A stretch of 64,000 bases of DNA from Desulfurivibrionaceae bacterium (lineage in GTDB: Bacteria; Desulfobacterota; Desulfobulbia; Desulfobulbales; SURF-16). Below, piece by piece: positions 12,397-39,265 of the stretch. Position 1 is the first letter of the stretch; each line of letters opens with the position of its first letter. Position numbers and translations under genes: made by a program. The DNA is taken from positions 26,440 to 90,439 of the forward strand of contig JAVLBA010000001.1 of assembly GCA_031581485.1 (NCBI GenBank), written 5' to 3'. The notes below the pieces were generated by a model, which saw only the letters and a program-made list of their open reading frames with translations, searched no databases and was not told the origin of the DNA.

Positions 12397-12552
12397 TTTC
12401 GTTTCCAGGCGTAATAATGCTTTCAGGGGTTTTTTGCAGAGAGCCCCTTTTTCTTCAGTCTATAGGGATTGTCAGGAATGTCAAACAGGCATGGCAGAAA
12501 TAAAGGAGGAGCTGGTGCCAGGTGAAACCTGGTGCCTCATTATCCAGTTTTT

Positions 12553-13434: not shown

Positions 13435-13517
13435 AAGAATTTATGGGCTGAGTTTTTCTTTTTCCCCGGGGCAGAGAAATCCTGCCGTTAATAATGGGGG
13501 GCCTGTTTGGTTTTCTA

Positions 13518-14901: not shown

Positions 14902-14996
14902 GGCTCTGCCCCATGGCAGGCCCGCTGCTTTCGGGCAATCGCCGCTATGATTTGTAAAAGGGGGGCTGCGGCCCCTTGCCGTGCACTTTGAAAATT

Positions 14997-17455: not shown

Positions 17456-17567
17456 TAGAGAGGCATGGGGTGCGCCGGCAAATACCCCGCAAGCAGCCGG
17501 CCTGGAGAGACGATGACCACAAGAGAAGAAGCACACGTGCTCTCTGCAGAGCAAGGAGACGCCTGGC

Positions 17568-19343: not shown

Positions 19344-19479
19344 GGCGATGTTGCATGGCCCTGCTTCGCGGCAGAAAGGAAAAAGCGAGGCCTCTTTGGG
19401 CGACAATATCCCAGGGGCATGGCTGGCGTGGTCAAAAAAGAGATTTGCACTTTCCCCGGGTTCCCTTTATTTAAGCAAG

Positions 19480-21474: not shown

Positions 21475-22151
21475 AAAAAAAATGGCAACATAAACTACTG
21501 CTTTTTCTGGCCCCCTTTGTCTATAAAGTAGTGATGGGTTTTGTCATCACCACGTGCCGCAAAGAGATGCACGGCAAGGAGATCTGGCAGGAATTGGTGG
21601 ATTCCGGTAAGCCCTTTATCCTCACCTTCTGGCATTATAATGTCCTCTATGCCTCCCTCTCCGGCGGCCGGTTGCCCATGGTGGCCATGGTCAGCCCCAG
21701 CAAGGATGGCGAGTTTATCGCCCGCATCATGGAGTCGAAGGGGATCACCACGGTGCGGGGCTCCCGCAGCAAGGGAGGGGTGGGGGCCATCAAGGGTCTT
21801 TTAAAGGCCGTGCGCCGGGGCTTGAGTCCGGTGATTATTGCGGACGGCTCTCAGGGCCCGGCCCAGGTGGTGCAGGGCGGCTCCATCATCATCGCCGGCC
21901 GGGCCGGTATTCCCATTGTGCCCATGAACTGGGCCTTCAGCCGCTATAAGCTCTTTCGCAGCTGGGACAAGACCCTGCTGCCCCTGCCCTTTGCCCGGCT
22001 GGTGTGGGTGGTGGGGGAACCGCTGCAGGTGCCCAAGGGGCTTGACGGTGAGGAGGTGGAGGCCTATCGCCTCCTGCTGGAAGAGAGGCTGGCGTCCACC
22101 TATGAAGCGGCTTGGGCGGCTTTTGGTAAGAAGAATCACGAAGACCTCTGA
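21471..22151 (+). CDS. DUF374 lysophospholipid acyltransferase family protein
   Basis: [31 protein letters not shown]. Confidence 0.85.
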
Positions 22152-22163
22152 GGGGGAACAATC

Positions 22164-22292
22164 ATGCGCAGATTTCAACTCATCCTCGGCCTGCTGGCCC
22201 TGGTTATCCATCTGGTGGCCCGCGGCGGCATGGCGGTGATCTTGCTCGGCATCATCATCGGTGCCCTCTTGATGCCGACGCTGACGGCGTAA
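22164..22292 (+). CDS. 42-aa hydrophobic small protein
   Basis: GAGGGGG RBS then MRRFQLILGLLALVIHLVARGGMAVILLGIIIGALLMPTLTA; below the ORF track cut-off. Confidence 0.5.
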   Translation: MRRFQLILGLLALVIHLVARGGMAVILLGIIIGALLMPTLTA

Positions 22293-22536
22293 TACGGAAC
22301 AAAACCCGGCCCGAGGGAAGGAGCCCTGCTTTGTTCACGCCACCGCAGGGCGGGGAATAGAGGAATTGCCGAGATGCTGACAACCCGGGGAAATATCAAT
22401 TGTATGCAGCTGACCAGCAGGTCCATAACGTCAGCGGCAACAACAGAATGACTGTTTTTTACAACTTTTTTAAACGAGGAAATAGTACGATAGAGACGCA
22501 CCAAGGCTCCACAGGGATGAATAGTCAAGCGGAGGG

Positions 22537-23574
22537 TTGAGTATGGTCATATCTGCATCTGGGAGTGCCGGGAGCAGTGAGGGAAAGGGAAAAAAAGGTC
22601 ATATCTGGCCCGATTGGTATCCGGTGCTGGCAACTTTCCGGAAATCAGACAGCCTGAAAGCCACCTGGCAGTTGCTGAACACGATACTCCCCTATTTTTT
22701 TCTCTGGTATCTGATGATCCGGTCAATTCAGCTCGATTATTCCTACCTGATCACCCTGATTATCGCCCTGCCTGCCGCCGCGTTTCTCGTGCGGATATTC
22801 ATTTTATTTCACGACTGTGTGCATGGTTCCTCCTTCAGATCGAAGCGCGCCAACACCTTCTTCGGCTACTTCCTCGGGGTGCTTGTGTTTACTGCGTATG
22901 AAGAGTGGCGCTTCATCCATCTCCGGCACCATGGGACCTACGCCAATCTTGACTCGCGGGGATTCGGCGACGTCTGGACCATGACACTCACGGAGTATCA
23001 GGACTCGCCAAAGCGGAAACGGGTACTGTACAGACTTTACCGAAACCCCCTGGTGCTCATCGGCTTGGGCGCATTATTTAATTTTCTACTCCACAACCGC
23101 TTTCCGGACGTACGGGTGAAGCGCAAAGAACGGCTGAGTGTTTTTTTCACCAACCTGCTCATCATCGCCGTCGCTTTGCTTGCCACCCGGATTATTGGCT
23201 GGCGGACCTACCTCCTCATCCAGTTGCCGGTGTTGTGGCTTGCCGGGGGGGCAGGAATCTGGCTGTTTTACGTACAGCATCAGTTCGAAGGGGTGTATTG
23301 GGCCCGCACAGGTGAGTGGGAACCCTTGCGCGCCGCCATGGAAGGCAGTTCATTTTATAAGTTGCCGGCTGTGTTGCGTTGGTTTTCCGGCAACATCGGG
23401 TACCATCACATACATCACCTGAATCCCCTGATCCCCAATTACCATCTCAAGAAATGTTACGACGCTGTTCCGGCGCTGCAAGCCAAGGAGCCGCTTACCA
23501 TTATCAAAAGCCTTTCTTGTTATCGCCTGAAATTGTGGGATGAGGATTTGCAAAAAATGATCTCTTTTCCCTGA
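22537..23574 (+). CDS. membrane fatty acid desaturase (Des-like)
   Basis: His boxes HDCVH, HLRHH and HHIHH, plus YVQHQF. Confidence 0.9.
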   Translation: MSMVISASGSAGSSEGKGKKGHIWPDWYPVLATFRKSDSLKATWQLLNTILPYFFLWYLMIRSIQLDYSYLITLIIALPAAAFLVRIFILFHDCVHGSSFRSKRANTFFGYFLGVLVFTAYEEWRFIHLRHHGTYANLDSRGFGDVWTMTLTEYQDSPKRKRVLYRLYRNPLVLIGLGALFNFLLHNRFPDVRVKRKERLSVFFTNLLIIAVALLATRIIGWRTYLLIQLPVLWLAGGAGIWLFYVQHQFEGVYWARTGEWEPLRAAMEGSSFYKLPAVLRWFSGNIGYHHIHHLNPLIPNYHLKKCYDAVPALQAKEPLTIIKSLSCYRLKLWDEDLQKMISFP

Positions 23575-24037: not shown

Positions 24038-24568
24038 ATGAAATACGCAGGAATTAAAAAACCACTATCTTGGATCTTTTTTCTTAGTCTCCTTATTTTT
24101 GCGGCACCTGCTGGCGCTGCAACGCCTGCTGATATTGCAGAGATCCCCTCGTGCGGCTATTGCGGTATGGATCGGGAAAAATTTGCCCACTCCAGGGTCT
24201 ATCTGTCATATGCAGACGGCACCAAGGCAGGGGTATGTTCTCTGCACTGCGCCGCCATTGAGATGATTGTCAAATTAGATAAGGAACCCCTGGAAATTAT
24301 GGTTGGTGATTTCAACACCCGGGAGTTAATTAATGCCGATAAAGCCTACTGGGTCATTGGTGGTGATATGATGGGCGTCATGACCAGAAGGGCGAAGTGG
24401 GCCTTTGCTGACAAGGCGGCGGCTGAGAAGTTTATCAAGGAACATGGCGGCACCATGGCCACCTTTGAAGAGGCGCTGAAGGCCTCTTTTGAGGATATGT
24501 ATGAAGACGTAAACATGATAAGAGAAAAGAGAAAGATGATGCGGATGAAAAAGATGCAGCACATGTAA
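24038..24568 (+). CDS. NosL family copper chaperone
   Basis: Signal peptide, CGYCGM, CSLHC, AYWVIGG..GVM, FIKEHGG, Met-rich tail. Confidence 0.85.
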   Translation: MKYAGIKKPLSWIFFLSLLIFAAPAGAATPADIAEIPSCGYCGMDREKFAHSRVYLSYADGTKAGVCSLHCAAIEMIVKLDKEPLEIMVGDFNTRELINADKAYWVIGGDMMGVMTRRAKWAFADKAAAEKFIKEHGGTMATFEEALKASFEDMYEDVNMIREKRKMMRMKKMQHM

Positions 24569-24658
24569 AGGTGGTTGTGGTTACCAGTAAAGAACGGCAA
24601 TTACATATCACCACTAAAATGAGCCGGATTGATTCCGTATCAATTAGGATAGGTTGAG

Positions 24659-25372
24659 ATGAAAAAAATTATAGGCAAGGCTCTCTTATCTCTCTTAAAA
24701 CGGTCGCCAGCCCTGTTTGAGAGATACAGCGAAGAACATAAACACTCCTTGCAAGTGGCCCATGATAAACTGGCAGAAATTAACCTTGAACTGGAGGAGA
24801 AAAGCGCTGAAACTATTCAGGAGCTCATGGAAAAAAATGCCGAACTGGAAAGGCTTTCCATTTCGGATCCGCACACCCGGCTTTACAATCGGCGCCATTT
24901 TGACACATACCTGCTCAAGGAGTGGTACCGAGCCCAGCGCAGTCACGATCATATATCCCTGATTCTTTGTGACCTGGACCACTTCCATGCCTATAATGAG
25001 GCCTATGGATATGAGACGGGCAATGAGTGTATTCATCATGTCGCCCAGGTAATAGCTCACTTCACCAGACGGCCCTATGATATCCCGGCTAGATACGGCA
25101 GCAAAAAGTTTGCGGCCATTCTGCCCCATACCGATACAGACGGGGCCATGATTATCGCAACCGGCATCAAGGATGAAGTGGAAAAAATAGCGATTCCACA
25201 CATTAAATCACCCATTAAGAACATTGTCACCGTAAGCTTTGGCGTCGCCACCGTGCTCCCTGAAAAGGGTAAAGATTGCGCCGCCCTTATCGCCATGACA
25301 GAAGAGGCCCTTTGTGAGGCCAAAAGCGGGGGCCGGGACCGAATATCTGCCAAGAGGGCTGCAGGGATATAG
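24659..25372 (+). CDS. degenerate GGDEF-domain protein
   Basis: Coiled coil, DPHTRLYNRR, DLDHF, RYGSKKF in place of RYGGEEF, VTVSFG, AKSGGRD. Confidence 0.85.
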   Translation: MKKIIGKALLSLLKRSPALFERYSEEHKHSLQVAHDKLAEINLELEEKSAETIQELMEKNAELERLSISDPHTRLYNRRHFDTYLLKEWYRAQRSHDHISLILCDLDHFHAYNEAYGYETGNECIHHVAQVIAHFTRRPYDIPARYGSKKFAAILPHTDTDGAMIIATGIKDEVEKIAIPHIKSPIKNIVTVSFGVATVLPEKGKDCAALIAMTEEALCEAKSGGRDRISAKRAAGI

Positions 25373-25568
25373 CGCCTACTGGAGAGCACCGGGCTTGCAT
25401 GCTTTTAACAGACATCCGCCCCTCTTTTCCTCAGAGGCAGCCCCTGGCCACCTAATTTTTTACCTGGCCAGCCCATCTCTTCACCCTCTTTAAAAGAAAT
25501 CTAAAAAGGGGGTACATAACATGATCCGCCTGAGGTGGATTGATGTCGTATCTGGAGGATAGCTCGAA

Positions 25569-26045
25569 ATGAAAAAACTTCTAGGCACGATTCTCTTATC
25601 TCTTTTTCTTATTATCAGCACAGCCTATGCTGTGGGGATAAAGCCGGCAACGCCGCAGTCAGGTGATAAATGCCCTGTCTGCGGCATGTTTGTGGCCAAA
25701 TATCCTGACTGGGTCTGTGAAATAATGTACCAGGACGGTACGGTCCTCTTTTTCGACGGGACAAAAGATCTCTTTAAGTTCTACTTTGAACCTCATAAAT
25801 TCAAATCCAGCAAACAGCGTCAGAATATCAAGGCCATTTATGTGACAGAATACTATGACTTGAATTTCATTGAGGCCAGAAACGCCTTCTATGTCATGGG
25901 CAGTGATGTCTATGGCCCCATGGGCCTGGAGCTGGTTCCCTTCAAGACCGAAAAAGACGCCACAGAATTTCTCAGGGACCATCACGGCAAGAAAATTATC
26001 AGTTTCAACGATGTGGATGCTGCCCTGATCAAAACCCTTGATTGA
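25569..26045 (+). CDS. NosL family copper chaperone
   Basis: CPVCGM, FFDGTKD, YVMGSDVYGPMG, FLRDHHG. Confidence 0.9.
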   Translation: MKKLLGTILLSLFLIISTAYAVGIKPATPQSGDKCPVCGMFVAKYPDWVCEIMYQDGTVLFFDGTKDLFKFYFEPHKFKSSKQRQNIKAIYVTEYYDLNFIEARNAFYVMGSDVYGPMGLELVPFKTEKDATEFLRDHHGKKIISFNDVDAALIKTLD

Positions 26046-26149
26046 TGTATGGGGCAAAAGTCCATTTTCTGGCAGCAAAAACGCCGATTCCCCGGCATGG
26101 CGAAATATTGCCTGTTCTTTGCCTTCCTTGCGAAATAGGGTCTTAAGCT

Positions 26150-26818
26150 GTGATAGAATTTTACAATATTAAAAAAACCTTCAATCTCGGCAAAGCAAAC
26201 CAGTTTGCCGCCCTCAAAGATATCAGCCTCACTATTGAGAAAAATAAGATAACTGTCCTGAAAGGGCCGAGCGGCTCGGGTAAGACAACCCTTGCCAGTC
26301 TTATCGGCTGCATGTCCAGGCCCACCTCAGGCAGAATCAAAATAGATGGCAGAGAGATCACTTCACTGCCGGAGAGATTTTTGGCCGAGATTAGACGGGA
26401 TAATTTCGGTTTCATATTTCAGCGCTTCAATCTCATAACAGGCATCTCGGTTTTGGAAAACACCCTCTTGCCCACCTATCCCATGGGGCTAAAGTCTTCC
26501 CTGGCCCAAAAAAAGGCCATCACCCTGCTGGAAAAATTAAACATCGGTTCCAAAATTCGCCAGGAGGTTGAGAATCTCTCCAGCGGTGAACAGCAGCGGG
26601 TGGCTATTGCCAGGGCGCTGATCAATGACCCCCTCTTTATTATTGCTGACGAGCCCACTGCCCATCTTGACCAGAATATGGCGGTGAAATTCATTGATAT
26701 CGTCTCACAACTCCACGCTGAAGGCAAAACCCTGCTTATCGCCAGCCACGACCCTTTGCTCTATGATTCAGAAATCGTGCACCGGGTGATTGCCTTGCAA
26801 GATGGTCAATTAGTATAA
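26150..26818 (+). CDS. LolD/MacB-type ABC transporter ATP-binding protein
   Basis: GPSGSGKTT, GFIFQRFNL, LSSGEQQR, ADEPT, ASHD. Confidence 0.92.
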   Translation: MIEFYNIKKTFNLGKANQFAALKDISLTIEKNKITVLKGPSGSGKTTLASLIGCMSRPTSGRIKIDGREITSLPERFLAEIRRDNFGFIFQRFNLITGISVLENTLLPTYPMGLKSSLAQKKAITLLEKLNIGSKIRQEVENLSSGEQQRVAIARALINDPLFIIADEPTAHLDQNMAVKFIDIVSQLHAEGKTLLIASHDPLLYDSEIVHRVIALQDGQLV

Positions 26819-26833
26819 AGGATAGGTCATTCA

Positions 26834-27838
26834 TTGTTTATCAATCCCGCGATTATCGGTCTTACAGCTGCATCATTGCTGGTCTCAGGAGTTACCATCT
26901 ACGCCTCGATTATCGGCGCGGTGATCATCCGCTCATGGGACATCAACAGTGGCAGTGAAAGGCAGCTCCAGCTCGAAAGAAAGACCTATCTGATCTCAAC
27001 TGTCCTCAGCTACGTTCTGGTGTGTGAACTCCTCTCCCTGCTCCTGTTTGTCGTCAACGCCGACACTATGCACAGCCTGTTTACCGGTGCTATGTGTGCG
27101 GCCGGCACCCTTTATGCCAACAGTTATGGCTACCCGACCCTGTTGACTAAAATTGCCGTCTGCATCATGTCAGGAGTCTGGTTGATTGTTAATCATGTTG
27201 ACAACCGGGCCTATGACTACCCGCTGATAAAATTTAAATATGGATTTCTCCAGCTGATCACCGTCATCATTATCCTGGAAGCCGTCCTCCAGATAAATTA
27301 TTTTATGGCCCTGGATCCTGAAATAATTACCTCCTGCTGCGGCACCCTGTTCAGCGGTGAAGCCGACACCCTGACCGGCGAATTGGCCCACCTCTCCCCC
27401 CTTACCGCTAAAATGTCCTATTATCTGACCCTCACAGGCACCTTCACTGCCGGGGCCTGGTTTTTGTTGAGGGGCAGGGGGGCGTTGATCTTTTCCTTCT
27501 TTAATTCTCTGCTTTTTTTTGTCTCCCTGGCCGCGATAATCTCCTTTATCTCTCTCTATTTCTATGACCTGCCCACCCATCACTGCCCCTTCTGCATTTT
27601 ACAAAAGGAATATCATTATGCCGGCTACATTCTCTACCTGGCACTTTTTACGGCCACCATTGCTGGTGGGGGGATTGCGGCACTTGCCCCCTTCACAGGG
27701 CATAAATCCCTGGAAATGATTTTACCAAGAGTTCAACGAAAACTTTGCCTTCTTGCCATGATCGGCCATGCAGTTTTTGCCACACTGTGCACGTACCAGG
27801 TACTGTTTTCTGATTTAAAACTGGGCGGCTACTCCTGA
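26834..27838 (+). CDS. multi-TM membrane protein with Cys/His motifs
   Basis: About 8 hydrophobic helices; GAMCAAG, TSCCG, HHCPFC. Confidence 0.8.
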   Translation: MFINPAIIGLTAASLLVSGVTIYASIIGAVIIRSWDINSGSERQLQLERKTYLISTVLSYVLVCELLSLLLFVVNADTMHSLFTGAMCAAGTLYANSYGYPTLLTKIAVCIMSGVWLIVNHVDNRAYDYPLIKFKYGFLQLITVIIILEAVLQINYFMALDPEIITSCCGTLFSGEADTLTGELAHLSPLTAKMSYYLTLTGTFTAGAWFLLRGRGALIFSFFNSLLFFVSLAAIISFISLYFYDLPTHHCPFCILQKEYHYAGYILYLALFTATIAGGGIAALAPFTGHKSLEMILPRVQRKLCLLAMIGHAVFATLCTYQVLFSDLKLGGYS

Positions 27839-28009
27839 CGCCATTCTTGTCGCCATAATCTGCTTCATCCCTCTCTCTTTCTTAAGGAGTGCCGGCCTGG
27901 CACTCTGCACGGCAATCATGGCGGGGCCGTGAGATTGTGCGGCAAATTGCCCCATGGGCAAGGCGTAAATTCCTGACAATAATTCAAGCCAAGAGTTTAA
28001 GAAAAAAAT

Positions 28010-28039
28010 TTGCCTTTATGTGTGGTGAAGGCCTACACT
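28010..28039 (+). promoter_or_regulatory. putative sigma70 promoter for the cytochrome-porin operon
   Basis: TTGCCT-18 nt-TACACT preceded by an A-rich tract. Confidence 0.4.
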
Positions 28040-28146
28040 TTTCATAACGGCTGGTGCCTACCAGACCCTGTTTTCTGAATTCAAAATGGACGAATATGAA
28101 TGAAGTCCTAGAGCCATAGAGAGGGTGAAAAAAAAATCAATTCAGC

Positions 28147-28188
28147 AGGGGAGAATTATGAAAACAAAGGGGAGGATTATGAAAACAA
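28147..28188 (+). repeat. 21-bp tandem duplication of RBS plus ATG
   Basis: AGGGGAGAATTATGAAAACAA followed by AGGGGAGGATTATGAAAACAA, one mismatch. Confidence 0.9.
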
Positions 28189-29804
28189 AACTAAATTCTT
28201 TTTGGGTATTGTTGGTAGTTCTGGCGGCAATTTTTTTCATGCAGACCAAGGCGGCATGGGCCCTGCCTGCTAACAGCCGGGTGTATCAGACCAGCTGTGT
28301 CACCTGCCACGATTCTCCTCCCAGGCTGAACGCCGTGGGCGAGGCCTTCCGCCTCAACGGTTATAAATTCCCGGACGACGAGACAAAGAGAAAACTGAAG
28401 CCGCTGCCCCTGGGTGATGAAGCTTACCAGCGCCTGTGGCCAGAGGCCATCTGGCCCGGCGAGAAGCCCGACTTCAATCCCATTTCCTTAGTGAGCATCT
28501 GGGCCCTGGAGTATCATGATAACCAGCCCATAGACCCGAAAACAGGTGAAGAGGGACCCACCTACTCTATTGTGGCCCCCCATGAGATTGAGCTGGCATG
28601 GATGTCTCCTCTGGGCGATCATATCTCCGTTTATGGTGACGCCAGATTTATCCAGGAAGACTGGGGCGGCACCGAAATGGATTCCTGGGTTGCCTTAAAG
28701 GCCTGGATCGAATTTGAGGACCTGTTCGGCATCGAGAATAAACTCAACTTGCGAGTCGGCTCGCTGGGGATGCACAGCATTCACCTGTTGACCGCCCGCA
28801 ACGAGCACGCCATGGGTTTTCAGAACTATCTGATGAATACCTATCTGCTACCGGGCCTCTCCAAGAGTTCAAGAACTACGGTCGACGAGTATCCTCAGAG
28901 CGATATTGATGAAGTAGATTTCGACATCAGATCATGGGTGGGCAACAACTTTACCATTGGGCCCAAGGTCGGCATAGAGCTCAACGGCTTTACCCGCCAT
29001 CTTGCCTATAATATCGGCGTGGTCAACGGCAAGACCGATGATCCCACCGACGGGGTCTTCTTCATGGGGTCCGGCTCCAACACGGGCCGCAAGGATTATT
29101 TTGCCAACCTGGCCATCAAGTTCGGCGGCCTTGGCTTTGACGCCTCCACCGGTGCCGAAGAGGAGGAGGACCCCTTTGCCGAAGAGACCGCGGTCAAAAA
29201 AGAAAGCGGTGACAGCCAGTTCTGGCGTGACGACAGTCTGACCGTCTCCTTTATGGGCTATAGGGGCGAGGGGGCGACCGAGCTGATCTACTATTCCAAC
29301 AGCGCAACGGCCATGTTCGCTACAGGCCAGGTAACTGAATACGTCAAGGAAGATTTCTGGCGCCTTGGTGTGGGCGCCATGTGGAAATTCAAAGATTTAA
29401 CCGTGGAAGCCGCCCATATGTGGGGGCATCATGACAATCCTTACGGTGATCTCGATACCAGGCCGGACCCAAGCGTTGAGACCAGGGTCTGGCATGTGGG
29501 TGCGCATTATTATCTCTACCCCTGGCTGGTGCCCTTCGCCAGGTTTGAAGAGCTCAAATTCTTCGATCTGCCCGGCCAAGATGTCTTATTGCTTGATGTC
29601 GAACAAGACAGACAACTGGTTACGGTGGGGGCGAAAATGCAGATTCGCCCCAATATCCACCTCAATATCGAGGGCTATTATTACACGGATACCGGAGATG
29701 CCACGGTGGTCAACCCGGACAGTACTAAATATATCGGAGTTTCTGAGGAGGCGGTATATCTTAATGATGAAACAGTAATGATGATATTGCGGGCTGAGTT
29801 TTAA
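28179..29804 (+). CDS. Cyc2-like monoheme cytochrome c fused to outer-membrane beta-barrel porin
   Basis: Signal peptide ending AWA, ALPANSRVYQTSCVTCHDSPPRLNAVGEAFRLNGY, amphipathic beta strands, terminal LRAEF. Confidence 0.78.
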   Translation: MKTKLNSFWVLLVVLAAIFFMQTKAAWALPANSRVYQTSCVTCHDSPPRLNAVGEAFRLNGYKFPDDETKRKLKPLPLGDEAYQRLWPEAIWPGEKPDFNPISLVSIWALEYHDNQPIDPKTGEEGPTYSIVAPHEIELAWMSPLGDHISVYGDARFIQEDWGGTEMDSWVALKAWIEFEDLFGIENKLNLRVGSLGMHSIHLLTARNEHAMGFQNYLMNTYLLPGLSKSSRTTVDEYPQSDIDEVDFDIRSWVGNNFTIGPKVGIELNGFTRHLAYNIGVVNGKTDDPTDGVFFMGSGSNTGRKDYFANLAIKFGGLGFDASTGAEEEEDPFAEETAVKKESGDSQFWRDDSLTVSFMGYRGEGATELIYYSNSATAMFATGQVTEYVKEDFWRLGVGAMWKFKDLTVEAAHMWGHHDNPYGDLDTRPDPSVETRVWHVGAHYYLYPWLVPFARFEELKFFDLPGQDVLLLDVEQDRQLVTVGAKMQIRPNIHLNIEGYYYTDTGDATVVNPDSTKYIGVSEEAVYLNDETVMMILRAEF

Positions 29805-29813
29805 GAAAAAGAA

Positions 29814-29884
29814 TGAAGGTTGAAGTGGCGTGGGTACGCTACGCCACTTCAACCTTCAGCCTTCAACCTTCAACCTTCAACCTT
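29814..29884. repeat. 18-bp perfect inverted repeat overlapping five CTTCAAC heptamers
   Basis: TGAAGGTTGAAGTGGCGT (29814-29831) pairs with ACGCCACTTCAACCTTCA (29841-29858); heptamers run 29847-29881. Confidence 0.9.
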
Positions 29885-29895
29885 GAGAGCTGAGG

Positions 29896-30570
29896 ATGAG
29901 AATTGCTGCGCTTTATTTTTTGATGTTAGGGGCTGTTGCCCTCATGCTGCCGATGGTTTCCCTCGCCCAGGAAGAGTCCGGCTATGGCTCGGTGGGCGGC
30001 ATCATCATGGTCTGGAAGACAATGGTTGAGACCACAGGCCCCAGAAACGCCAAAGATGTTATCGTCTATCTGGAAAGCGACAAATCCTTTCCGCCGGTAA
30101 CGGACAGACTCATACAGATGGATCAGAGGGGGTTGCTCTTTATCCCCCATGTCCTGGCCATCCAGAAGGGCACCTCGGTTGAGTTCCTCAATAATGACTC
30201 GGAAAAACATAATGTCTTTTTCCTCTTTGACAAAACCGGCGAAACTCTGGATATCGGCACCTGGGAGAGGGGGCAAAGCGTGGTTCATACCTTTAACGAA
30301 ACCGGCACAGTCATCACCCTGTGCAAGCTGCATCTGGAGATGGCGGCCAATATAATCATCCTGGATAATCCATATTATACCCATGCCGAGATTGACGGCG
30401 ATAGCCAGCGGACCACATATCGTCTAGATAGAGTTCCGCCTGGAGAGTATGTCTTGAAAACATGGCATAAAAAACTGAAGATGAAAGGAGGTGAGGCCCC
30501 CATCAAGGTTGAGGCCGGGAAGATGACCAAGGTGAATATTGCCATTACCAAAAGACAGTATGCCCACTAG
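29896..30570 (+). CDS. periplasmic cupredoxin-domain protein with carboxypeptidase-regulatory-like beta domain
   Basis: Signal peptide, MDQRGLLFIPHV, HNVF, type-1-like Cu ligands CKLHLEM, VPPGEYVLKTWH. Confidence 0.78.
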   Translation: MRIAALYFLMLGAVALMLPMVSLAQEESGYGSVGGIIMVWKTMVETTGPRNAKDVIVYLESDKSFPPVTDRLIQMDQRGLLFIPHVLAIQKGTSVEFLNNDSEKHNVFFLFDKTGETLDIGTWERGQSVVHTFNETGTVITLCKLHLEMAANIIILDNPYYTHAEIDGDSQRTTYRLDRVPPGEYVLKTWHKKLKMKGGEAPIKVEAGKMTKVNIAITKRQYAH

Positions 30571-30711
30571 CGGAACTCTCACACTGCAGGTAAGCCACAT
30601 GTCAATGTAAACAGGCGTTTGAATAGTGGAAAAAAACGACCCTCTGTCCCCGTATCCTCCAATGGATCCTTTTTTGACATGGCACTGTAAACTGAGTCTT
30701 ATTTGCAGCTT

Positions 30712-32646
30712 ATGAAAAAATATATAAAATTACTGACAATCGGCTTGGCCATAGTGCTGATTTGCGCCATGATCCCGGTACTGTTGGCAGAACCAGCACC
30801 CGAGGTCGGCCAGAAGAGGGACTTCTATATAAAGGCAGAGCTCTGGGAGTATTCCCCCCATCGCATTGTGGTGGATCAGGGGGATGAAATTCGCCTCAGA
30901 CTTGCCTCCAGGGATGTGGTCCATGGTTTTCACCTTGAAGACCACGGCATCGAGGCCACCATCTTTCCCGGGAAAATCCCTTTTTATCTCCGCAACCCTG
31001 AGACAGAAGAAAAAGCCATCCAGGTTACGGAGACTTCATTTATAGCCGACCGCTGGGGCAAGTTTTTTTACCGGTGCTCGGTTACCTGCGGCACGTTGCA
31101 CCCTTTCATGTTGGGCGAGTTGATTGTCCGGCCCAACTATCCATTTAAGGCCGCTGTCGGCGCGATGCTCGGGCTCCTTTTGGCCTCTTTCATCCTCATG
31201 TTCATGGATGCCAGGCAGCGGCCATCCCCTGACACATATGTCAGCCCGCCGCCCCCCTGGAGGCTGGACCTGTTGGCCAAGATACCTGGCCTCAGGAGGC
31301 TGCTTACCTTTAAAGGCCTGCCGTTCTCTCTTTATCTCCCTATTTTCGGCTGTCTGATCTTTTTTATCATTGCCGGTTTTTATGGCTCACCCATCGGCAA
31401 CAAAAACATCAGTGTCACCGTTGTCTGGATTTTTTGGTGGTTCTTGCTCATCTGTTTCATGATCCCCTTTGGCGCCAGAATATGGTGCATGGCCTGCCCC
31501 TTCCCTTTTCTGGGGGAGTGGCTGCAGAGGGGCAGACTGTTAGGCCCAAGCCGTGCAGACACCCGCACCCAGCCCATGAGGGGCTTAAGGAAAAAATGGC
31601 CAAAAGCCCTTTCTAATATTTGGCTGCCGAACATCCTCTTTCTCTCCCTCTGCACCTTCAGTGCCATGCTGGTCACCCGTCCGATCACCACTGCTGTGGC
31701 GCTGGTGGGTCTCACCATCCTTGCCACGGCCATCCATTATATCTACCGCAAACGTACCTTCTGCAACTATATCTGCCCGGTAGGGGGGTGGATGAGCCTG
31801 TACAGCATGGCGGGCATGGTCGAGGTACGATCCCGGTCACCATTGCTTTGTGCCGGCTGCCGGACCAGGGCCTGCGTCAACGGCAATGAACGGGGCTGGA
31901 GCTGCCCTTGGTCCCAGAACCCCAGTAAGCAGAGCCTCAACAATCACTGCGGGTTATGCATGGAGTGCATCAAATCCTGCGACAACAGCAATATGACGTT
32001 ACAGGCTCGGCCCTTTTGTACTGATACCGACATCAAGGGCTATGATCAGGCCTGGATGGCCTTTATTATGATCACCCTCGCCCTGGTCTACAGTGCCACC
32101 TATCTCGGGCCTTGGGGATTTCTCAAGAGCTGGGCCAATGTCAGCGAGGTTCGTAATTTTCAGGGATTTGCAATTTTTGCCGGCACTCTTTGGTTTACTG
32201 CCTTGATTGGTTTTCCTGCTCTCTGGTTTGTTTTTGCCTGGCTCGGCAAGGTACTCGCCGGCCGGAAAAGTGTTCCCACCAGCAAACTCTTTGTCAAGTA
32301 CTCGTATCTTCTGGTCCCCCTGGGTTTAACGGCCTGGATCTCTTTCAGTCTGCCGGCGGTGCTGGTAAATAATACCCATATAATTTCCAGCTTTTCAGAC
32401 CCCATGGGCTGGGGCTGGGACCTTTTTGGCACCGCCCACATGGAGTGGAAACCGCTTTTCCCGCATTACATTGTCTATATTCAAATAAGTTCATTGTTAA
32501 TCGGTCTGACCTTTTCCATGAAACGGGGCTACGAGATTGCGCAAAAAATTTATCCCGTGCCAAGTGAAGGAATAAGAAGCCTTATGCCCTTGGCAGCCTT
32601 GTGCACAGGAATCTCCATAATTTTGTTAAGAATTTTTGCGGGCTGA
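30712..32646 (+). CDS. CuA cupredoxin domain fused to NapH/NosR-like membrane 4Fe-4S protein
   Basis: DVVHGF...CSVTCGTLHPFM; multiple TM helices; CMACP, CNYICP, CAGCRTRAC...CP, CGLCMECIKSC. Confidence 0.82.
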   Translation: MKKYIKLLTIGLAIVLICAMIPVLLAEPAPEVGQKRDFYIKAELWEYSPHRIVVDQGDEIRLRLASRDVVHGFHLEDHGIEATIFPGKIPFYLRNPETEEKAIQVTETSFIADRWGKFFYRCSVTCGTLHPFMLGELIVRPNYPFKAAVGAMLGLLLASFILMFMDARQRPSPDTYVSPPPPWRLDLLAKIPGLRRLLTFKGLPFSLYLPIFGCLIFFIIAGFYGSPIGNKNISVTVVWIFWWFLLICFMIPFGARIWCMACPFPFLGEWLQRGRLLGPSRADTRTQPMRGLRKKWPKALSNIWLPNILFLSLCTFSAMLVTRPITTAVALVGLTILATAIHYIYRKRTFCNYICPVGGWMSLYSMAGMVEVRSRSPLLCAGCRTRACVNGNERGWSCPWSQNPSKQSLNNHCGLCMECIKSCDNSNMTLQARPFCTDTDIKGYDQAWMAFIMITLALVYSATYLGPWGFLKSWANVSEVRNFQGFAIFAGTLWFTALIGFPALWFVFAWLGKVLAGRKSVPTSKLFVKYSYLLVPLGLTAWISFSLPAVLVNNTHIISSFSDPMGWGWDLFGTAHMEWKPLFPHYIVYIQISSLLIGLTFSMKRGYEIAQKIYPVPSEGIRSLMPLAALCTGISIILLRIFAG

Positions 32647-32650
32647 CATT

Positions 32651-33823
32651 ATGAAAAGAGAGAAACTGGCCACTCTGAGTGTCATCTTCATTATCATTCT
32701 TGTCCCGGCTCTTGTGCTCTCGGCAATATGGTACAGAGAAGAACGCTTTCTGGCTGAGTATCCAGCAGGGGTAAAGGTCTTTGATATTACCGGCGTTGCT
32801 GAAAACGGTGCCTTTACCCTGGATACGGTTAATGGCCTCAACTATTGGTGGAAGAAATTCCAGCCCATGCTCGTGCATGTGTTTGTGGGGGACCAGGTTG
32901 TTTTACGATTAACGACCGCCGATGTTGTTCACCAATTTTATGTACCAGCCCTGAACCTGGGCCCCGTAAATATAAAACCGGGTCATCCCGTCCAACTTGA
33001 GTTCCTGGCTGAAAAGCCCGGGGTCTACCAGTATTTCTGCACCTCCCTCTGCGGCAATTGCCATTTTTATATGAGCGGCTGGATTGTCATAACTCCGGTT
33101 GGAGAGACCGCCTTGACACCGCCACCGATCACCTGTCCCCTTTGCGTACCCGGCTATATCGAGCGGCCTGAGGATGATTTAATTGATCTCGGGGAATATC
33201 TTTATCTGCAAAAGGGGTGCAACACCTGTCACGGCAACGCAGGTATTGGCGGGGTAGAGAATCTGAATTATGCCAAAAAGACGGTGCCGGCCCACAATGA
33301 AACAGCTAAAAAGCTTTTTCTGAAAGAGGAAGAAGATGCCGAGGCCTTTATTGATCTGATAAGCAAATATCCTGACCTGGAAAACCTGCCAGAGACCCCG
33401 GACATTCCGCGATTCCATCTGGTGTTGGCGAGATATCTAGCCACCAAAGAATTGGTAAAGAAAGGGTCGCCCGCCATAAAATTGGATGAAAATGGCCCTA
33501 TGCCCCCTCTGCAGATGCCGGCTTGGGAGGCCCAGTTGCCGGACCGTGACATAGATGCCCTTCTCAGCTATTTTCTCACCCTGCAACCCTGGGAAGAAGC
33601 GGCTATGAAGGATGGAGACGAGCCCAGATTTACTGATGAGCCAAGCTTTGATGATGAGCCAAGCTTTGGAGATGAGCCGAACTTTGGAGATGAACCCGAC
33701 TTTGGAGATGAACCGAATTTTGATGATGAGCCGGACTTTGGAGATGAACCGAACTTTGATGATGAGCCGGACTTTGGGGATGATGAGGAAAAACCGGGCT
33801 CTGAAAAGAGTGCAGGTCCTTGA
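32651..33823 (+). CDS. membrane-anchored CuA (CoxII-like) plus cytochrome c protein with acidic repeat tail
   Basis: One N-terminal TM, DVVHQF...CTSLCGNCHFYM, CPLC, heme motif CNTCH, distal MPAW. Confidence 0.82.
   Translation: MKREKLATLSVIFIIILVPALVLSAIWYREERFLAEYPAGVKVFDITGVAENGAFTLDTVNGLNYWWKKFQPMLVHVFVGDQVVLRLTTADVVHQFYVPALNLGPVNIKPGHPVQLEFLAEKPGVYQYFCTSLCGNCHFYMSGWIVITPVGETALTPPPITCPLCVPGYIERPEDDLIDLGEYLYLQKGCNTCHGNAGIGGVENLNYAKKTVPAHNETAKKLFLKEEEDAEAFIDLISKYPDLENLPETPDIPRFHLVLARYLATKELVKKGSPAIKLDENGPMPPLQMPAWEAQLPDRDIDALLSYFLTLQPWEEAAMKDGDEPRFTDEPSFDDEPSFGDEPNFGDEPDFGDEPNFDDEPDFGDEPNFDDEPDFGDDEEKPGSEKSAGP
33617..33778 (+). repeat. nine tandem 18-bp coding repeats (DEPxF[G/D/T])
   Basis: GATGAGCCGGACTTTGGA-type unit repeated nine times with variation. 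Confidence 0.95.
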
Positions 33824-34191
33824 TGAAATATAAAATTTTCGCCGGAATTTTATTATGTGAGATTCTACTCTTAACAACCCTGGCGGTCTCTGCCGCTATC
33901 TCCTCAACGAAGAGGGCTCCAGCCCTTGAGGCCAACCAGCAGCTGGTTGAAAACCTGATGCTCACTGACCTCTCGCTCTGGACCGAGACCAGCTACAGCA
34001 GGCACCCCTCGCAGGCCGATTTTTTTGCCCCCTTTCAAGATGCTCCCGGAGCCATTGAACGGTTCCCTGCTGGTTCACTGACCGCCCCTGCCGCGCTTTA
34101 TAACATATCGCAAAGAGCGGCTTCCCGGCCAAACTCTCCCGGCCGGATCGCTGAAACAGACTCCGATAATGAACAGGCGGCGAGAAAATGA
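33823..34191 (+). CDS. small membrane-anchored hypothetical protein
   Basis: TGATG and ATGA overlaps with both neighbours; N-terminal TM; LTDLSLWTETSYSRHPS. Confidence 0.75.
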   Translation: MKYKIFAGILLCEILLLTTLAVSAAISSTKRAPALEANQQLVENLMLTDLSLWTETSYSRHPSQADFFAPFQDAPGAIERFPAGSLTAPAALYNISQRAASRPNSPGRIAETDSDNEQAARK

Positions 34192-35360
34192 AGATAGAAA
34201 AACACATCCGCATACTTGAGTTTGCCCTGTCGTCACTCTTCAGGCAGAAACTCAAGAACATTATTATTATTCTGGCCTACACCTTAAATGTCTTCATCTT
34301 CTCGTCCGCTATTTTTTTCTCTGAATCCCTCAAGAATGAGGCGGTTACCTTACTGGAATACTCGCCTGAACTCATTGTCCAGAGAATGAGAGGGGGACGG
34401 CATGAACTGGTGCCGCTGCAATATGCCGAAAAAATTAAAGAGATAAGAGGGGTGACGGCGGTCACCCCTCGGTACTGGGGATACCATTACGACCCGCCGG
34501 TCAATAACAACTACACATTTTTAGGTGCCGACCAGCTGCCCCCAGAGGTATTGGAAATGGTTGAAGGCTCCTTTTACGAGCAGGAGGGCAACGATTTATG
34601 CGTTATTGGCCAAGGTGTTGCAGACGCCCGCTTTGTAGACACAGAGGACATCATTCCGGTCCTGGGGGCTGACGGTGATCTGCATGCCTTAAGGGTGGCT
34701 GGAATATTTACGGCAAAATCAAACATACTGACCAATGATCTGGTGATCCTCAAAACGGCTGATTTGAAAAAAATCTTTCTCATCCCCGATGATATGGCCA
34801 CCGACCTGGTTGTTAAGGTCAGAAACGTCAACGAGGTCTCGACAATTGCCCGGAAGATTCAGGAGATGATGCCTGATAGCAGGCCCATTGAAAAATCACA
34901 GATTATCAAAACCTATGAAGCGATATTTTCCTGGCGGGGCGGCTTGATGGTGGCGATATTTTTCGGCTCCATAACCGCCTTTTCCATCCTGGCCTGGGAC
35001 AAGGCCACCGGCCTCAGCGGCCAGGAGAGAAAAGATATAGGCATACTGAAGGCCATCGGTTGGGATACTTCCGACATTATTGAACTGAAATTCTGGGAAG
35101 GGTTTATCATCTCCAGCATGGCTTTTTTCCCCGGAATTATCTTCGCCCAGGCCCATATCTATCTGTTGGACGGCCTTATTTTTTCTCCCCTGATGAAAGG
35201 CTGGTCCAGCATCTTTCCGCAAATAAATCTGGCGCCGCAAATTGAGATTTATCATCTTATTGTGATTATCTTCCTTACCATTATCCCTTATATAACAGCG
35301 ACCCTGATCCCCTCCTGGAAAGCGGCAATCACCGATCCGGATATGATCATGAAGGGGTAA
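34188..35360 (+). CDS. FtsX/MacB-like ABC transporter permease
   Basis: 1 TM, large periplasmic domain, 3 TM; ERKDIGILKAIGW; PSWKAAITDP. Confidence 0.9.
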   Translation: MKIEKHIRILEFALSSLFRQKLKNIIIILAYTLNVFIFSSAIFFSESLKNEAVTLLEYSPELIVQRMRGGRHELVPLQYAEKIKEIRGVTAVTPRYWGYHYDPPVNNNYTFLGADQLPPEVLEMVEGSFYEQEGNDLCVIGQGVADARFVDTEDIIPVLGADGDLHALRVAGIFTAKSNILTNDLVILKTADLKKIFLIPDDMATDLVVKVRNVNEVSTIARKIQEMMPDSRPIEKSQIIKTYEAIFSWRGGLMVAIFFGSITAFSILAWDKATGLSGQERKDIGILKAIGWDTSDIIELKFWEGFIISSMAFFPGIIFAQAHIYLLDGLIFSPLMKGWSSIFPQINLAPQIEIYHLIVIIFLTIIPYITATLIPSWKAAITDPDMIMKG

Positions 35361-35372
35361 GATCCTGACAAA

Positions 35373-35813
35373 ATGCGACCTATAATTTTCACACTGTTCC
35401 TTATTCTTTTCTTCTCTGGCGGCTGCGGACCCAACAAGGCCCCTGAACACCCCCAGGTGGTTGCTGACGGAGATGTCGTTAAAGTGCCGCTCTCGGAGGT
35501 GGGTGACGGCGGGGTGCATTTCTATACCTATAAATTTGACAACAAGAATGTTAATTTTCTGGTCAGAACCGATGGCAAGGGCAAACTCCATACGCACCTG
35601 GATGCCTGCTACAGCTGTTTTAAGTATAAGATCGGTTATTATGTGGAGGATGGGGATCTTGTCTGCCGGGCCTGTCGCTATCGATATCCCCTGGCCGATG
35701 AGGAGTGGCTGTTTATTCAGGCCTGCGCCCCCATCGCTTTGAGACACAGGATCAAAGGAAACTATCTGGTCATTAAGCTCTCCCGCCTAAAGCGGGCCGG
35801 CAAGTTCTTTTGA
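35373..35813 (+). CDS. DUF2318 family lipoprotein (predicted metal/Fe-S binding)
   Basis: Lipobox-like FSGGC, HFYTY, DACYSC, GYY, VCRAC, CAPIAL. Confidence 0.8.
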   Translation: MRPIIFTLFLILFFSGGCGPNKAPEHPQVVADGDVVKVPLSEVGDGGVHFYTYKFDNKNVNFLVRTDGKGKLHTHLDACYSCFKYKIGYYVEDGDLVCRACRYRYPLADEEWLFIQACAPIALRHRIKGNYLVIKLSRLKRAGKFF

Positions 35814-35973: not shown

Positions 35974-36843
35974 TCATTGGGTGAGGCTGAAGGTAATCGG
36001 CATAGTGATCTCGGCGTCTTCCAGGGGGAGCGGGAACGGCGCGACCTGCCGCACCACAGCCATGGCCTGGCGGTCAAGCAGGTCGTATCCCGAGCTTGCC
36101 AAGACGGTGATGCCCTCCACGCCGCCCTCGTGATTGATACGGAAGGAGAGTTTGACCTGACCCGTCCAGCCTTTCTTCCGGGCCACGGCGGGATAGCGCA
36201 AGTTGCGCAGGACCCGGTCGCGGATACCGGCGAAATGGTTGGTCCGGTACTGTTCCTGGCTGCTCTGGGAGTGCTCTCCCGTGACCGCTTCCCGGCTGGC
36301 GGTCTGGGCAAGTGTGGCGGGGTTTGCTGGGCCGGATGGCGCTGGCCTGGCAAGCCCTGCAGCTGAGGCGAGTGGCTTTGGCAAAACTGTTTGTGTTGCC
36401 GATTCTACCTTGGTCGCTGCTCTTTCCTCCTGGACAAATGATTCTGCCGCTGCTGGTTCTGCTGGCGGTGTTTCAGCCACCAATGCTTCCCGTTCTGGTG
36501 CCTGTACCGCTTTTTTCTGGTGGCGCTGCTCGATAATGGGCGGATTGGCATCAACGGCGGCTTCCACAGGCCTCGTGTCTTGGCCGACTTCAGCAGCCCG
36601 TTGCAAAACTGGTGCGCTTGCTGATGCCTCAGCTGCGCTCGCTACCTTTTTCAACGGGCTGTCAGAGGTGACGGGAAGCGCGGGGGCGGACATCTCTTGG
36701 CCATTGCCGTCGAGCATGGTGAAATTCATCAGATCGATGCGCTGGGGAACGCTGACCGTGCGTGTGGCGCCGATAATCGCCAGCACCAGCAGCACATGAA
36801 TGGCACACGAAAGCAGCAGGGCCTTTATCTGTCTGGTCATCAT
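35974..36843 (-). CDS. tonB: energy transducer TonB
   Basis: SxxxH TM motif SCAIH, Ala/Pro-rich linker, YPAVARKKGWTG, SSGYDLLD. Confidence 0.9.
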   Translation of the reverse strand: MMTRQIKALLLSCAIHVLLVLAIIGATRTVSVPQRIDLMNFTMLDGNGQEMSAPALPVTSDSPLKKVASAAEASASAPVLQRAAEVGQDTRPVEAAVDANPPIIEQRHQKKAVQAPEREALVAETPPAEPAAAESFVQEERAATKVESATQTVLPKPLASAAGLARPAPSGPANPATLAQTASREAVTGEHSQSSQEQYRTNHFAGIRDRVLRNLRYPAVARKKGWTGQVKLSFRINHEGGVEGITVLASSGYDLLDRQAMAVVRQVAPFPLPLEDAEITMPITFSLTQ

Positions 36844-37220
36844 ATCTTTTCAGTCTGCAAACTCACCTTGGCAAAACCCAACCCTTTTACCGTGTTGAGC
36901 ACCTTAACAAAGTTCTGCAGGGCAATCTGCCGGTCGGCGCGGATGAGGACAGTGGTTTCCCGTTCATGGGAACGAAGCCGTTCCTCCAGGGCCGCCATGG
37001 TCACCGGTTCCGCATCCAGGACAATGGCCCCCTGTCTGTCAATATCGATCAGGATAGCCTGCTTTGTCGTTGATGTCTGACTGGCCGAGGCCTTTGGCAG
37101 GTCAACGCTGATGGTCCCCTGGGCGATAAAGGTCGAGGTGGTGAGCACAATGGTGAGCAGCACCAGCATGATGTCGATGAAGGGGATGACGTTGATGGAA
37201 TCAAACTGTGTGTCATCCAT
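36840..37220 (-). CDS. exbD: biopolymer transport protein ExbD
   Basis: INVIPFIDIMLVLL, VDLPKA, IRADR. Confidence 0.93.
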   Translation of the reverse strand: MDDTQFDSINVIPFIDIMLVLLTIVLTTSTFIAQGTISVDLPKASASQTSTTKQAILIDIDRQGAIVLDAEPVTMAALEERLRSHERETTVLIRADRQIALQNFVKVLNTVKGLGFAKVSLQTEKI

Positions 37221-37635
37221 ATTGGGACTCCCATTGAACCAGCAGCACCTTGACCCGCCGCAGCAGGAAGTTGTAGAGGATGATGGCCGGTATCGCCACC
37301 ACCAGGCCAAGAGCGGTGGCCTTGAGGGCCAGGGCCAGGCCGACCATGATCTTGCCGGTGTCCATGAAACCCTCTTGGCCGATGCCATAAAAGGTGAGCA
37401 TGATGCCCAGCACTGTGCCCAGGAGACCGATATACGGAGCATTGCTGCCGATGGTGGCGATGATGTGGAGTTTGTCGGTGAGCTCCAGTTTCAGGGTCTG
37501 GTGATCACCATAGTCAGCAAGCCGAATGCCGTTATAAAAGAGCTGGCGTTCAATGGCTATGGCCACGGCGATGACACTCATCAGTAACAGTAAACCGATA
37601 ACGCCGTAGTCAATTGTTGCCTGCAGCCAATCCAT
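37213..37635 (-). CDS. exbB: TonB-system energizer ExbB (short form)
   Basis: TIGSNAPYIGLLGTV, ALKATALGLVVAIP. Confidence 0.93.
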   Translation of the reverse strand: MDWLQATIDYGVIGLLLLMSVIAVAIAIERQLFYNGIRLADYGDHQTLKLELTDKLHIIATIGSNAPYIGLLGTVLGIMLTFYGIGQEGFMDTGKIMVGLALALKATALGLVVAIPAIILYNFLLRRVKVLLVQWESQYG

Positions 37636-37825
37636 TGCTATCTCCTTTCTTTTTTTTCTTGAATCTGGAATAGGCTGCCACTCCCAGCACCGCTACCCCA
37701 CCACCCACGCAGCCGAAGCAGGAGGCGCATCCTCCCCCAGCGCAACCGGCCGATGCCAGAAGCCCACCCACTCCACTTGCCACACCGATGCCGGTCCCGA
37801 ACAGTTTTGCACCCATATTTTTCAT
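37610..37825 (-). CDS. 71-aa Gly/Cys-rich membrane microprotein
   Basis: MKNMGAKLF...CAGGGCASCFGC...RFKKKKK; fills the gap between the Fe-S gene and exbB. Confidence 0.65.
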   Translation of the reverse strand: MKNMGAKLFGTGIGVASGVGGLLASAGCAGGGCASCFGCVGGGVAVLGVAAYSRFKKKKKGDSNGLAAGNN

Positions 37826-37829
37826 AGGA

Positions 37830-39253: not shown

Positions 39254-39265
39254 GGCAACCGCTCC

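Follow-up and report, generated by a model that had tools for sequence, protein, structure and literature searches.

Conduits of the MtrCAB type export electrons across the bacterial envelope, which is also the function that we tentatively propose for the gene cluster described here. The iron uptake systems FtrABCD and FetMP-ABCDEF and the protein CcoG share building blocks with this cluster, namely a cupredoxin with a polyferredoxin, DUF2318 with a MacB-type ATP-binding cassette (ABC) transporter, and Cys-Pro motifs with 4Fe-4S. The cluster, hereafter the cassette, belongs to a Desulfurivibrionaceae bacterium, an anaerobe of the sulfur cycle (GenBank assembly GCA_031581485.1, contig JAVLBA010000001.1). 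It occupies positions 24038-35813 of the window, by which we mean the whole stretch of 64,000 nucleotides that was analysed. ORF calls and annotation confirm twelve co-directional open reading frames (ORFs) on the plus strand. An earlier reading of the DNA letters without database searches (the sequence-only reading) had counted these twelve and named ten; a GGDEF gene and a 123-aa ORF complete the list. Four of the genes encode redox proteins: a Cyc2-like cytochrome-porin, a type-1 cupredoxin, a CuA-polyferredoxin and a CuA-cytochrome.

Several described systems resemble parts of the cassette. The rus operon of Acidithiobacillus (cyc2-cyc1-cup-coxBACD-rus) likewise holds a monoheme cytochrome-porin, a periplasmic cupredoxin, CuA and heme c in one cluster (PMC10654088). 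Members of the Cyc2 family (Cyc2, Cyc2PV-1 and Cyt572) share with the cassette porin a signal peptide, a single N-terminal CxxCH, PxL and a 16-strand OprP-like barrel (10.1101/228056). NosR, RdhC and NapH have the membrane core with two Cys-Pro motifs that is found in the CuA-polyferredoxin, and relatives on both sides stand beside NosZ and RdhA; NosR and NapH also share with it two predicted cytoplasmic [4Fe-4S] clusters (PMC5928378). In the literature searched, mostly papers available without a subscription, we found no description of this gene set, in line with the sequence-only reading, which knew of no system of this composition. These genes may already appear in the Cyc2 alignment or in Fig. 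5 of PMC11096178, which draws an iron-sulfur protein and cytochromes next to nosZ of Desulfosporosinus. The cassette is real and conserved, and apparently undescribed.

Conservation and distribution

The neighbourhood of the redox genes was compared across 125 loci: 41 genome loci found via the CuA-ferredoxin, 80 of the 103 metagenome matches found via the porin profile, and 4 others. Many of the 125 are too short for their gene content to be tested. All four redox genes occur together in 20/125 loci and the ten-gene set in 11/125, so the gene-neighbourhood check proposed by the sequence-only reading came out in its favour. L005, L007 and L008, which belong to these 20, carry a porin of a more distant type at a downstream position. 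Among the named carriers are Thermodesulfobacteriota, Acidobacteriota, Verrucomicrobiota and Methylomirabilota; the first include a cultured isolate, Desulfoluna limicola ASN36 (L016).

The cupredoxin gene adjoins the porin gene in all 25 metagenome loci that have at least 800 bp on both sides (58/80 overall), a co-occurrence far beyond chance. Sixteen loci have the cupredoxin downstream and at least 2.5 kb of DNA, and 12 of them continue into the CuA-ferredoxin gene. The other four hold GltD-like, Rieske and cytochrome b genes (L077, L109), a GltD-like gene at the contig end (L054), or a cytochrome c with QrcAB-like genes (L078). Because other redox modules replace this one in 4 of the 16 testable loci, the module occupies the position of a membrane coupler. 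The whole is most simply read as a modular wire, in which porin and cupredoxin make up a front end and the inner-membrane coupler behind it can be exchanged.

The porin gave a strong match in only 2 of 61 genomes searched (this genome and a congener), with one more weak N-terminal match, and among 401 genomes from the phylum the CuA-ferredoxin profile found 12 at E<=1e-60, counting this one. Such a patchy distribution would be expected of a transferred cassette. The nearest named relative is a Desulfurivibrionaceae metagenome-assembled genome (MAG), L002, at 93% identity. In a quick, midpoint-rooted tree of membrane cores (62 rows; L022, partial and duplicate rows left out), the porin-linked cores form one clade of 27 rows with a Shimodaira-Hasegawa approximate likelihood ratio test (SH-aLRT) support of 91; the clade includes one copy linked to a type II dimethyl sulfoxide (DMSO)-family enzyme.

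Two variants of the front end were also seen. A pentaheme cytochrome with a carboxypeptidase-regulatory domain replaces the porin at L011, L012, L017, L018, L020 and L142. A more distant porin group (L093, L098, L104, L105, L108, L116, L123) mostly has the cupredoxin upstream of the porin, and downstream of it come more cupredoxins together with cytochromes of one to six hemes; at L093 a sigma-54 two-component system precedes the array.

The four redox proteins

The AlphaFold2 (AF2) model of the porin, made with 120 homologues and scoring 85 in the predicted local distance difference test (pLDDT), has a short N-terminal heme region and 16 long barrel strands. Its best solved fold is OprP (2o4v; Z 25.3, root-mean-square deviation 2.9, 316 aligned), which was reported as the template for Cyc2 (10.1101/228056). 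Foldseek returned general porins only, and the porin profile had no match among PDB sequences at E<=1. A signal peptide is present, as judged by eye and from hydropathy. The single CxxCH is CVTCH (residues 40-44, 28296-28310), and 118/120 homologues have exactly one CxxCH. Upstream of it the window porin does not carry the strict Cyc2 motif AxPxFAR[Q/K][T/Y]. Together with its 3 nearest homologues it has P-x-NSRVY at this place (PANSRVY in the window), with the FA lost; the motif is strict in 38/120 homologues and present as PxFxR in 108/120. Downstream, PxL is PRL in the window porin and is present in 90/120. As modelled, the window porin is a member of the Cyc2-like family that itself fails the strict motif, and the Cyc2-like outer-membrane heme-porin of the sequence-only reading is upheld by fold and N-terminal heme motif. 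A complex prediction of porin, cupredoxin and heme scored 0.08 (mark 0.32).

The cupredoxin, whose profile matches plastocyanin/amicyanin, keeps its type-1 copper ligands H105/C143/H146/M149 in 41/41 homologues, and an extra His85 is invariant. Both CuA proteins of the window contain CxxxCxxxHxxM. In the CuA-polyferredoxin the full set His...CxxxCxxxHxxM is found in 36/41, and five lack the motif on that chain. The best PDB profile match of this domain is Thermus CuA (2e-18), and the CuA fold match in the model has Z 12.

The AF2 model of the CuA-polyferredoxin (pLDDT 89) consists of an N-terminal helix, the CuA domain, a NapH/NosR-like core, a ferredoxin domain and five more helices. The core motifs C262xxC265P (CxxCP) and C354xxxC358P (CxxxCP) are present in 41/41, as are the ferredoxin cysteines C401/C416/C419/C422/C426; C386 is present in only 24/41. 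From these cysteines the protein is predicted to carry two [4Fe-4S] clusters. It matches the NapH model weakly (6e-8; 32 bits against a cut-off of 234). Its membrane part has no PDB sequence match among the 60 matches listed, and fold searches with the model were filled by the CuA domain and barely covered the membrane part.

In the CuA-cytochrome, H99/C135/C139/H143/M146, the CxxCH at 195-199 and M294 are found in 23/23. A second CxxCH falls inside the CuA loop. Its Cys142 is present in 22/23 and missing only in a sequence that also lacks the linker cysteines, a pattern that would fit a disulfide better than a second heme. The predicted ligands of type-1 copper, both CuA, heme (Met) and 4Fe-4S are thus conserved across homologues, in support of the cupredoxin and CuA assignments of the sequence-only reading.

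The CuA/membrane-ferredoxin module in other settings

NosR and RdhC accompany the terminal reductases NosZ and RdhA (PMC5928378). The module of the cassette keeps similar company elsewhere. It stands directly before NosZ in two Bacillota, a Thermincola MAG (L022) and G729 (NosZ 911 bits, over cut-off); 6/301 genomes matched in the Bacillota search. At L022:10025-15424 two tandem NosZ-like genes follow the module, the first without a CuA domain. In Anaerolineales the module adjoins reductive dehalogenase genes (confirmed at L032; the same gene family at L035-L039), and G586 has it three times beside reductive dehalogenases, of which two RdhA were confirmed. One locus of that genome, L153 (G586:C24:1-14439), has three tandem CuA-polyferredoxins, of which two have a tetraheme cytochrome and a reductive dehalogenase upstream. 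At L004 the module follows a type II DMSO-family enzyme with its heme b subunit fused to CuA; this EbdC-like fusion lies in a planctomycete type II DMSO-family operon (L004:4564-5961). A relative of the module stands near an FTR1-cytochrome fusion at L030. The four loci that were annotated after the Bacillota search show, one each, NosZ, RdhA, a MauG/MbnH-like diheme protein, and regulators only.

A search for longer relatives returned 4 proteins (P0121-P0124). In all of them the ferredoxin domain is interrupted by an inserted GltD-like NAD(P)H flavoprotein, and L024 (2-2185) has a GltD-like fusion at the same junction. In P0124 the CuA loop is on the same chain as the insertion, which makes this protein a candidate single-chain NAD(P)H:CuA oxidoreductase. 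It is possible, if doubtful, that the CuA-polyferredoxin is the core of an undescribed NAD(P)H/quinol:CuA oxidoreductase that conserves energy via the five-helix domain or a bound quinone, and that is plugged into NosZ, dehalogenases or a Cyc2-like porin as terminal reductase.

The membrane domain also occurs, in several Atlas clusters, fused to cNMP, sigma-54 AAA, RsbU and CtaG domains. The first three fusions, the two-component systems upstream of many loci, the Rex gene before the porin in G475 and the degenerate GGDEF gene within the window cluster would suit a cassette that senses redox conditions outside the cell or buffers oxidants, its membrane Fe-S domain relaying a signal or spending NAD(P)H. 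We consider such a role highly improbable, since none of the four redox proteins has an output domain, the GGDEF gene is not conserved, and the NAD(P)H-oxidoreductase fusions and NosZ neighbourhoods indicate catalytic transfer.

Oxidases, NosZ and cytochromes in host and carrier genomes

This genome (G000) is 93% complete. A genome-wide search for COX1, NosZ and clade III NosZ gave no match except the cluster's two CuA domains. The contig holds no multiheme protein; its only ORF with two CxxCH is the CuA-cytochrome, one of them overlapping the CuA loop. The sequence-only reading had reported no nosZ, oxidase subunit I or multiheme cytochrome in the window, and the genome and contig searches agree. 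Many multiheme cytochromes are encoded on other contigs of the genome, and further host genes include dsrA, cytochrome bd, NapAGHBC and NrfAH.

Twenty carrier genomes were surveyed, 15 of the porin type (including L019, whose porin was not seen in the locus) and 5 with the pentaheme replacement. A NosZ propeller is present in 1/20. A COX1-family gene is present in 16/20 and absent from G000, G004, G061 and G075. The COX1 Pfam family also includes nitric oxide reductases. Two candidate partners were rejected: a clade III (lactonase-type) NosZ, which has no match in the genome, and, for this lineage, the pairing of an orphan caa3 subunit II with a distant CoxA, as no COX1 occurs in G000, G004 or G061. 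A distant nosZ or oxidase subunit I as the real partner, which would have undone the sequence-only reading, is thus not what this lineage shows. That reading had also let the chain end at quinone rather than O2. The lack of COX1 in the lineage supports the second half of this claim; the quinone end is only one possibility, as fusions place an NAD(P)H flavoprotein on the cytoplasmic ferredoxin. An O2-ending branch is possible in other hosts because 16/20 carriers have a COX1-family gene.

Direction of electron flow

The reading that we favour, tentatively, is that the porin, cupredoxin, two CuA proteins and membrane polyferredoxin form one electron wire across both membranes, running outward. 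A low-potential donor (cytoplasmic NAD(P)H/ferredoxin or menaquinol) would reduce either a bound quinone or the pair of [4Fe-4S] clusters on the cytoplasmic side. Electrons would reach CuA at the periplasmic face on the same chain, as the topology of the model suggests, and would then pass, probably in this order, through the anchored CuA-heme c protein and the soluble type-1 cupredoxin to the porin heme. Candidates for a final, high-potential extracellular acceptor are Mn(IV), chelated Fe(III), oxidised humics, a conductive mineral and a partner cell. NosL, the MacB-type ABC pair, the Cys/His protein and DUF2318 may supply metal.

The near-invariant redox ligands count in support of an electron wire, and its direction, on which the sequence-only reading took no side, is suggested by genomic context and energetics. 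CuA has a potential of about +0.25 V. Flow from NAD(P)H at -0.32 V (PMC13741234) or menaquinol at -74 mV (PMC5928378) to CuA is therefore downhill and the reverse, to menaquinone or NAD(P)+, 0.3-0.6 V uphill, which favours export. The recognisable enzyme neighbours of the module are mainly reductases, which favours it too. Since the nearest carriers (G000, G004, G061) lack COX1, inward flow would have no copper-level O2 sink there. An outward role is already hinted at in print, as homologues of Cyc2 are reported from organisms related to Fe(III) reducers and from taxa that are not known to transfer electrons extracellularly (PMC6344600).

A number of points weigh against outward flow. All Cyc2 characterised to date are Fe(II) oxidases, with measured potentials of -130, +208 and +560 mV (PMC13692758, PMC13741234), and a low-potential porin heme would forbid flow from copper outward. 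The COX1-family genes of other carriers, and the host NapAGHBC and NrfAH, could serve as sinks if electrons flow inward. RdhA is considered to require electrons of low potential (PMC5928378). CuA would not deliver these, and the RdhA neighbourhood therefore does not show simple donation. The alignment revealed no conserved His pair for heme b in the membrane part of the CuA-polyferredoxin, which leaves the route across the inner membrane unexplained. GltD-like genes are absent from the window cluster, and the three found elsewhere in the genome are unremarkable. The cNMP, sigma-54 and CtaG fusions hint at non-respiratory roles of the membrane domain.

Much of this evidence bears on the opposite direction, which we regard as possible but unlikely. 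Electrons from Fe(II), reduced minerals or metal would pass from the porin heme through type-1 copper to CuA and on to a periplasmic reductase (Nap; in other hosts a distant oxidase), and the membrane module would drive an uphill branch to quinone or NAD(P)+. The Cyc2-like fold and family motif agree with this, as do the Nap and Nrf of the host, the carriers' COX1-family genes, and the bc-type and Qrc-like variants at L077, L109 and L078. In other organisms, modules of these two types serve uphill or inward flow. The rus operon also combines Cyc2, a copper protein and CuA (PMC10654088), and the value of -130 mV was obtained for one neutrophilic Cyc2 (PMC13692758). Against inward flow stand the uphill step from CuA, the reductases beside the module elsewhere, the FA lost from the motif of the window porin, and the three nearest carriers, which lack an energy-conserving downhill sink at the level of copper. 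To our knowledge, NapH-like proteins have no coupling device, which also weighs against it.

Accessory genes, gene inventory and composition

The accessory genes (nosL, ABC, Cys/His, small ORF and DUF2318) accompany the redox genes in 11 loci. Four of their products keep the following Cys, His and Met residues in all homologues compared: C39/C42/M44/C67/H70/C71/M115 in NosL 1 (6/6), C35/C38/M40/M118/H138 in NosL 2 (14/14), M87C88, C168C169, H249, C251 and C254 in the Cys/His protein (26/26), and C79/C82/C98/C101/C118 in DUF2318 (16/16). The 123-aa protein is present in 11/11 full-set loci and in a further copy on contig C195 of this genome. That contig carries a second nosL-small-permease-ATPase-Cys/His set, without copper proteins; close behind it come genes for a TorD-like chaperone and for a PhsA-like molybdoenzyme (443 bits, under cut-off). 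The same region of C195 (~11900-23400; L001, L157) also has a 411-aa exported protein with one C-terminal CxxCH, a second MacB-type pair and a thioredoxin-like gene. The accessory set is missing from the fetched DNA of L007, L008, L061 and L152, where the four redox genes are kept.

The sequence-only reading had taken these to be the cassette's own maturation genes. What stands is that the set travels with the redox genes in 11 loci; the claim is weakened, and the set need not be specific to copper, because the second set adjoins a molybdoenzyme and some loci with four redox genes have no set. Judged from NosL, copper supply by the accessory genes is plausible.

The GGDEF gene occurs in the same position in the congener G004 and in no cassette locus among L002-L125. 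It is a lineage-local insert outside the conserved cassette. All twelve genes are listed in Table 1.

Table 1. The twelve genes of the cassette, with positions in the window.
Gene product	Position	Strand	Basis and remarks
NosL-family protein 1	24038..24568	+	Pfam NosL 8e-14; CxxCGM and CxxHC motifs; predicted periplasmic metal chaperone
GGDEF-family protein, degenerate motif GSKKF	24659..25372	+	Pfam GGDEF and sequence
NosL-family protein 2	25569..26045	+	Pfam NosL 1e-36
MacB/LolD-type ABC ATPase	26150..26818	+	Pfam ABC_tran
Cys/His membrane protein, ~7-8 predicted helices	26834..27838	+	Hydropathy; without family
Cyc2-like monoheme cytochrome-porin, 541 aa from ATG 28179	28179..29804	+	ORF open from GTG 28125
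Secreted type-1-like cupredoxin with second beta-sandwich domain	29896..30570	+	Pfam Copper-bind, fn3_3
CuA with NapH/NosR-like membrane core and C-terminal five-helix membrane domain	30703..32646	+	Pfam COX2 and Fer4_5
Membrane-anchored CuA and class I heme c protein, acidic 6-residue repeat tail	32636..33823	+	Pfam COX2 and Cytochrom_C
Small conserved exported protein, 123 aa	33820..34191	+	Always precedes permease
MacB/FtsX-type ABC permease	34188..35360	+	Pfam MacB_PCD, FtsX
DUF2318 lipoprotein-like Fe-S protein (Pfam FtrD-like)	35373..35813	+	PF10080 2e-16

The porin, the Cys/His protein and the 123-aa ORF have no Pfam family at E<=0.01. The gaps between genes are, in order, 90, 196, 104, 15, 286, 91, 132, -11, -4, -4 and 12 bp, so more than one transcript is possible. 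Promoter/terminator and sigma-54 scans gave 71 matches against 82 expected. The cassette has a GC fraction of 0.499, lower than that of the genome (0.563) and of the flanks (0.58-0.59). An 18-bp repeat (33635-33783) corresponds to the acidic tail of the CuA-cytochrome; a 21-bp duplication lies in the start region of the porin (28147-28189) and a 7-bp tandem repeat between porin and cupredoxin (29847-29884). Short contigs in two salt-lake RNA runs cover the porin, the cupredoxin and both CuA genes; being contigs only, without a silent-stretch control, they are not counted as expression.

An operon on the minus strand (35974-41374) faces the cassette and encodes a TonB-dependent receptor, a 200-aa protein, a NapH-like ferredoxin and ExbB/ExbD/TonB. 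Its receptor, 200-aa and NapH-like genes also adjoin the cassette in L002 and L003. It may be a metal-uptake unit linked to the cassette.

Such an operon would suit a cassette devoted to metal acquisition or handling, in which the cupredoxin and polyferredoxin act in iron uptake like FtrB/FtrD, or the membrane protein is a cupric reductase like CcoG, and NosL, the ABC pair and DUF2318 move the metal. The FtrD-like Pfam assignment of DUF2318, the module relative near the FTR1-cytochrome fusion and the fusion that joins the membrane domain with CtaG, a factor of copper assembly, point the same way. We nevertheless judge this role improbable. FTR1 and P19 have no Pfam match among the twelve cluster genes, and the accessory set is missing from the fetched DNA of some redox loci and found without copper proteins on C195. 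Three serial copper centres, and a module that is swapped with bc- and Qrc-type modules, better fit bulk electron transfer, as in the outward wire that we favour.

Comparison with known systems

Cyc2 serves as a marker gene for iron oxidation. If the outward wire is real, Cyc2-like porins can run in reverse and copper can replace multiheme chains across the envelope. If, moreover, the CuA-polyferredoxin is the core of the oxidoreductase considered above, the result would be an extracellular respiration based on copper and free of multiheme cytochromes, and a large number of the Cyc2 matches in anaerobes would indicate mineral reducers, not iron oxidisers. A CuA-headed member of the NapH/NosR/RdhC group, with its natural flavoprotein fusions, also makes the role of the cytoplasmic Fe-S clusters and the crossing of the membrane, a long-open question, testable.

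The systems FtrABCD, FetMP-ABCDEF and CcoG lack the heme-porin and the two CuA centres of the cassette, and the cassette lacks the FTR1 permease and P19 of Ftr/Fet iron uptake. MtrCAB-type conduits differ in their multiheme cytochromes; the cassette has none, and uses copper carriers and a 16-strand fused porin. Compared with the Cyc2 family, the window porin reads PANSRVY where the motif is PxFAR[QK][TY]. NosR and RdhC have a periplasmic domain that binds FMN (flavin mononucleotide), and here the periplasmic domain is a CuA cupredoxin instead. Set against the wider NosR/RdhC/NapH group, the CuA-polyferredoxin carries CuA as its head where the others have FMN or NapG, has CxxCP as the first of its Cys-Pro motifs, ends in five additional helices that form a C-terminal domain, and has relatives with NAD(P)H-flavoprotein insertions. 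The nos gene cluster has the nosZ propeller and nosD; no propeller was matched in this genome, and a Pfam scan of the cluster genes gave no NosD. Unlike the rus operon, the cassette has no oxidase subunits I/III, with no coxA in the 93% complete genome; it has two CuA proteins, not one, and a NapH/NosR-like Fe-S protein at the inner end, and its hosts include anaerobes without COX1. Neither a rus operon nor a nos cluster, the cassette represents a variant porin-cytochrome conduit whose NapH/NosR-like inner module is headed by CuA.

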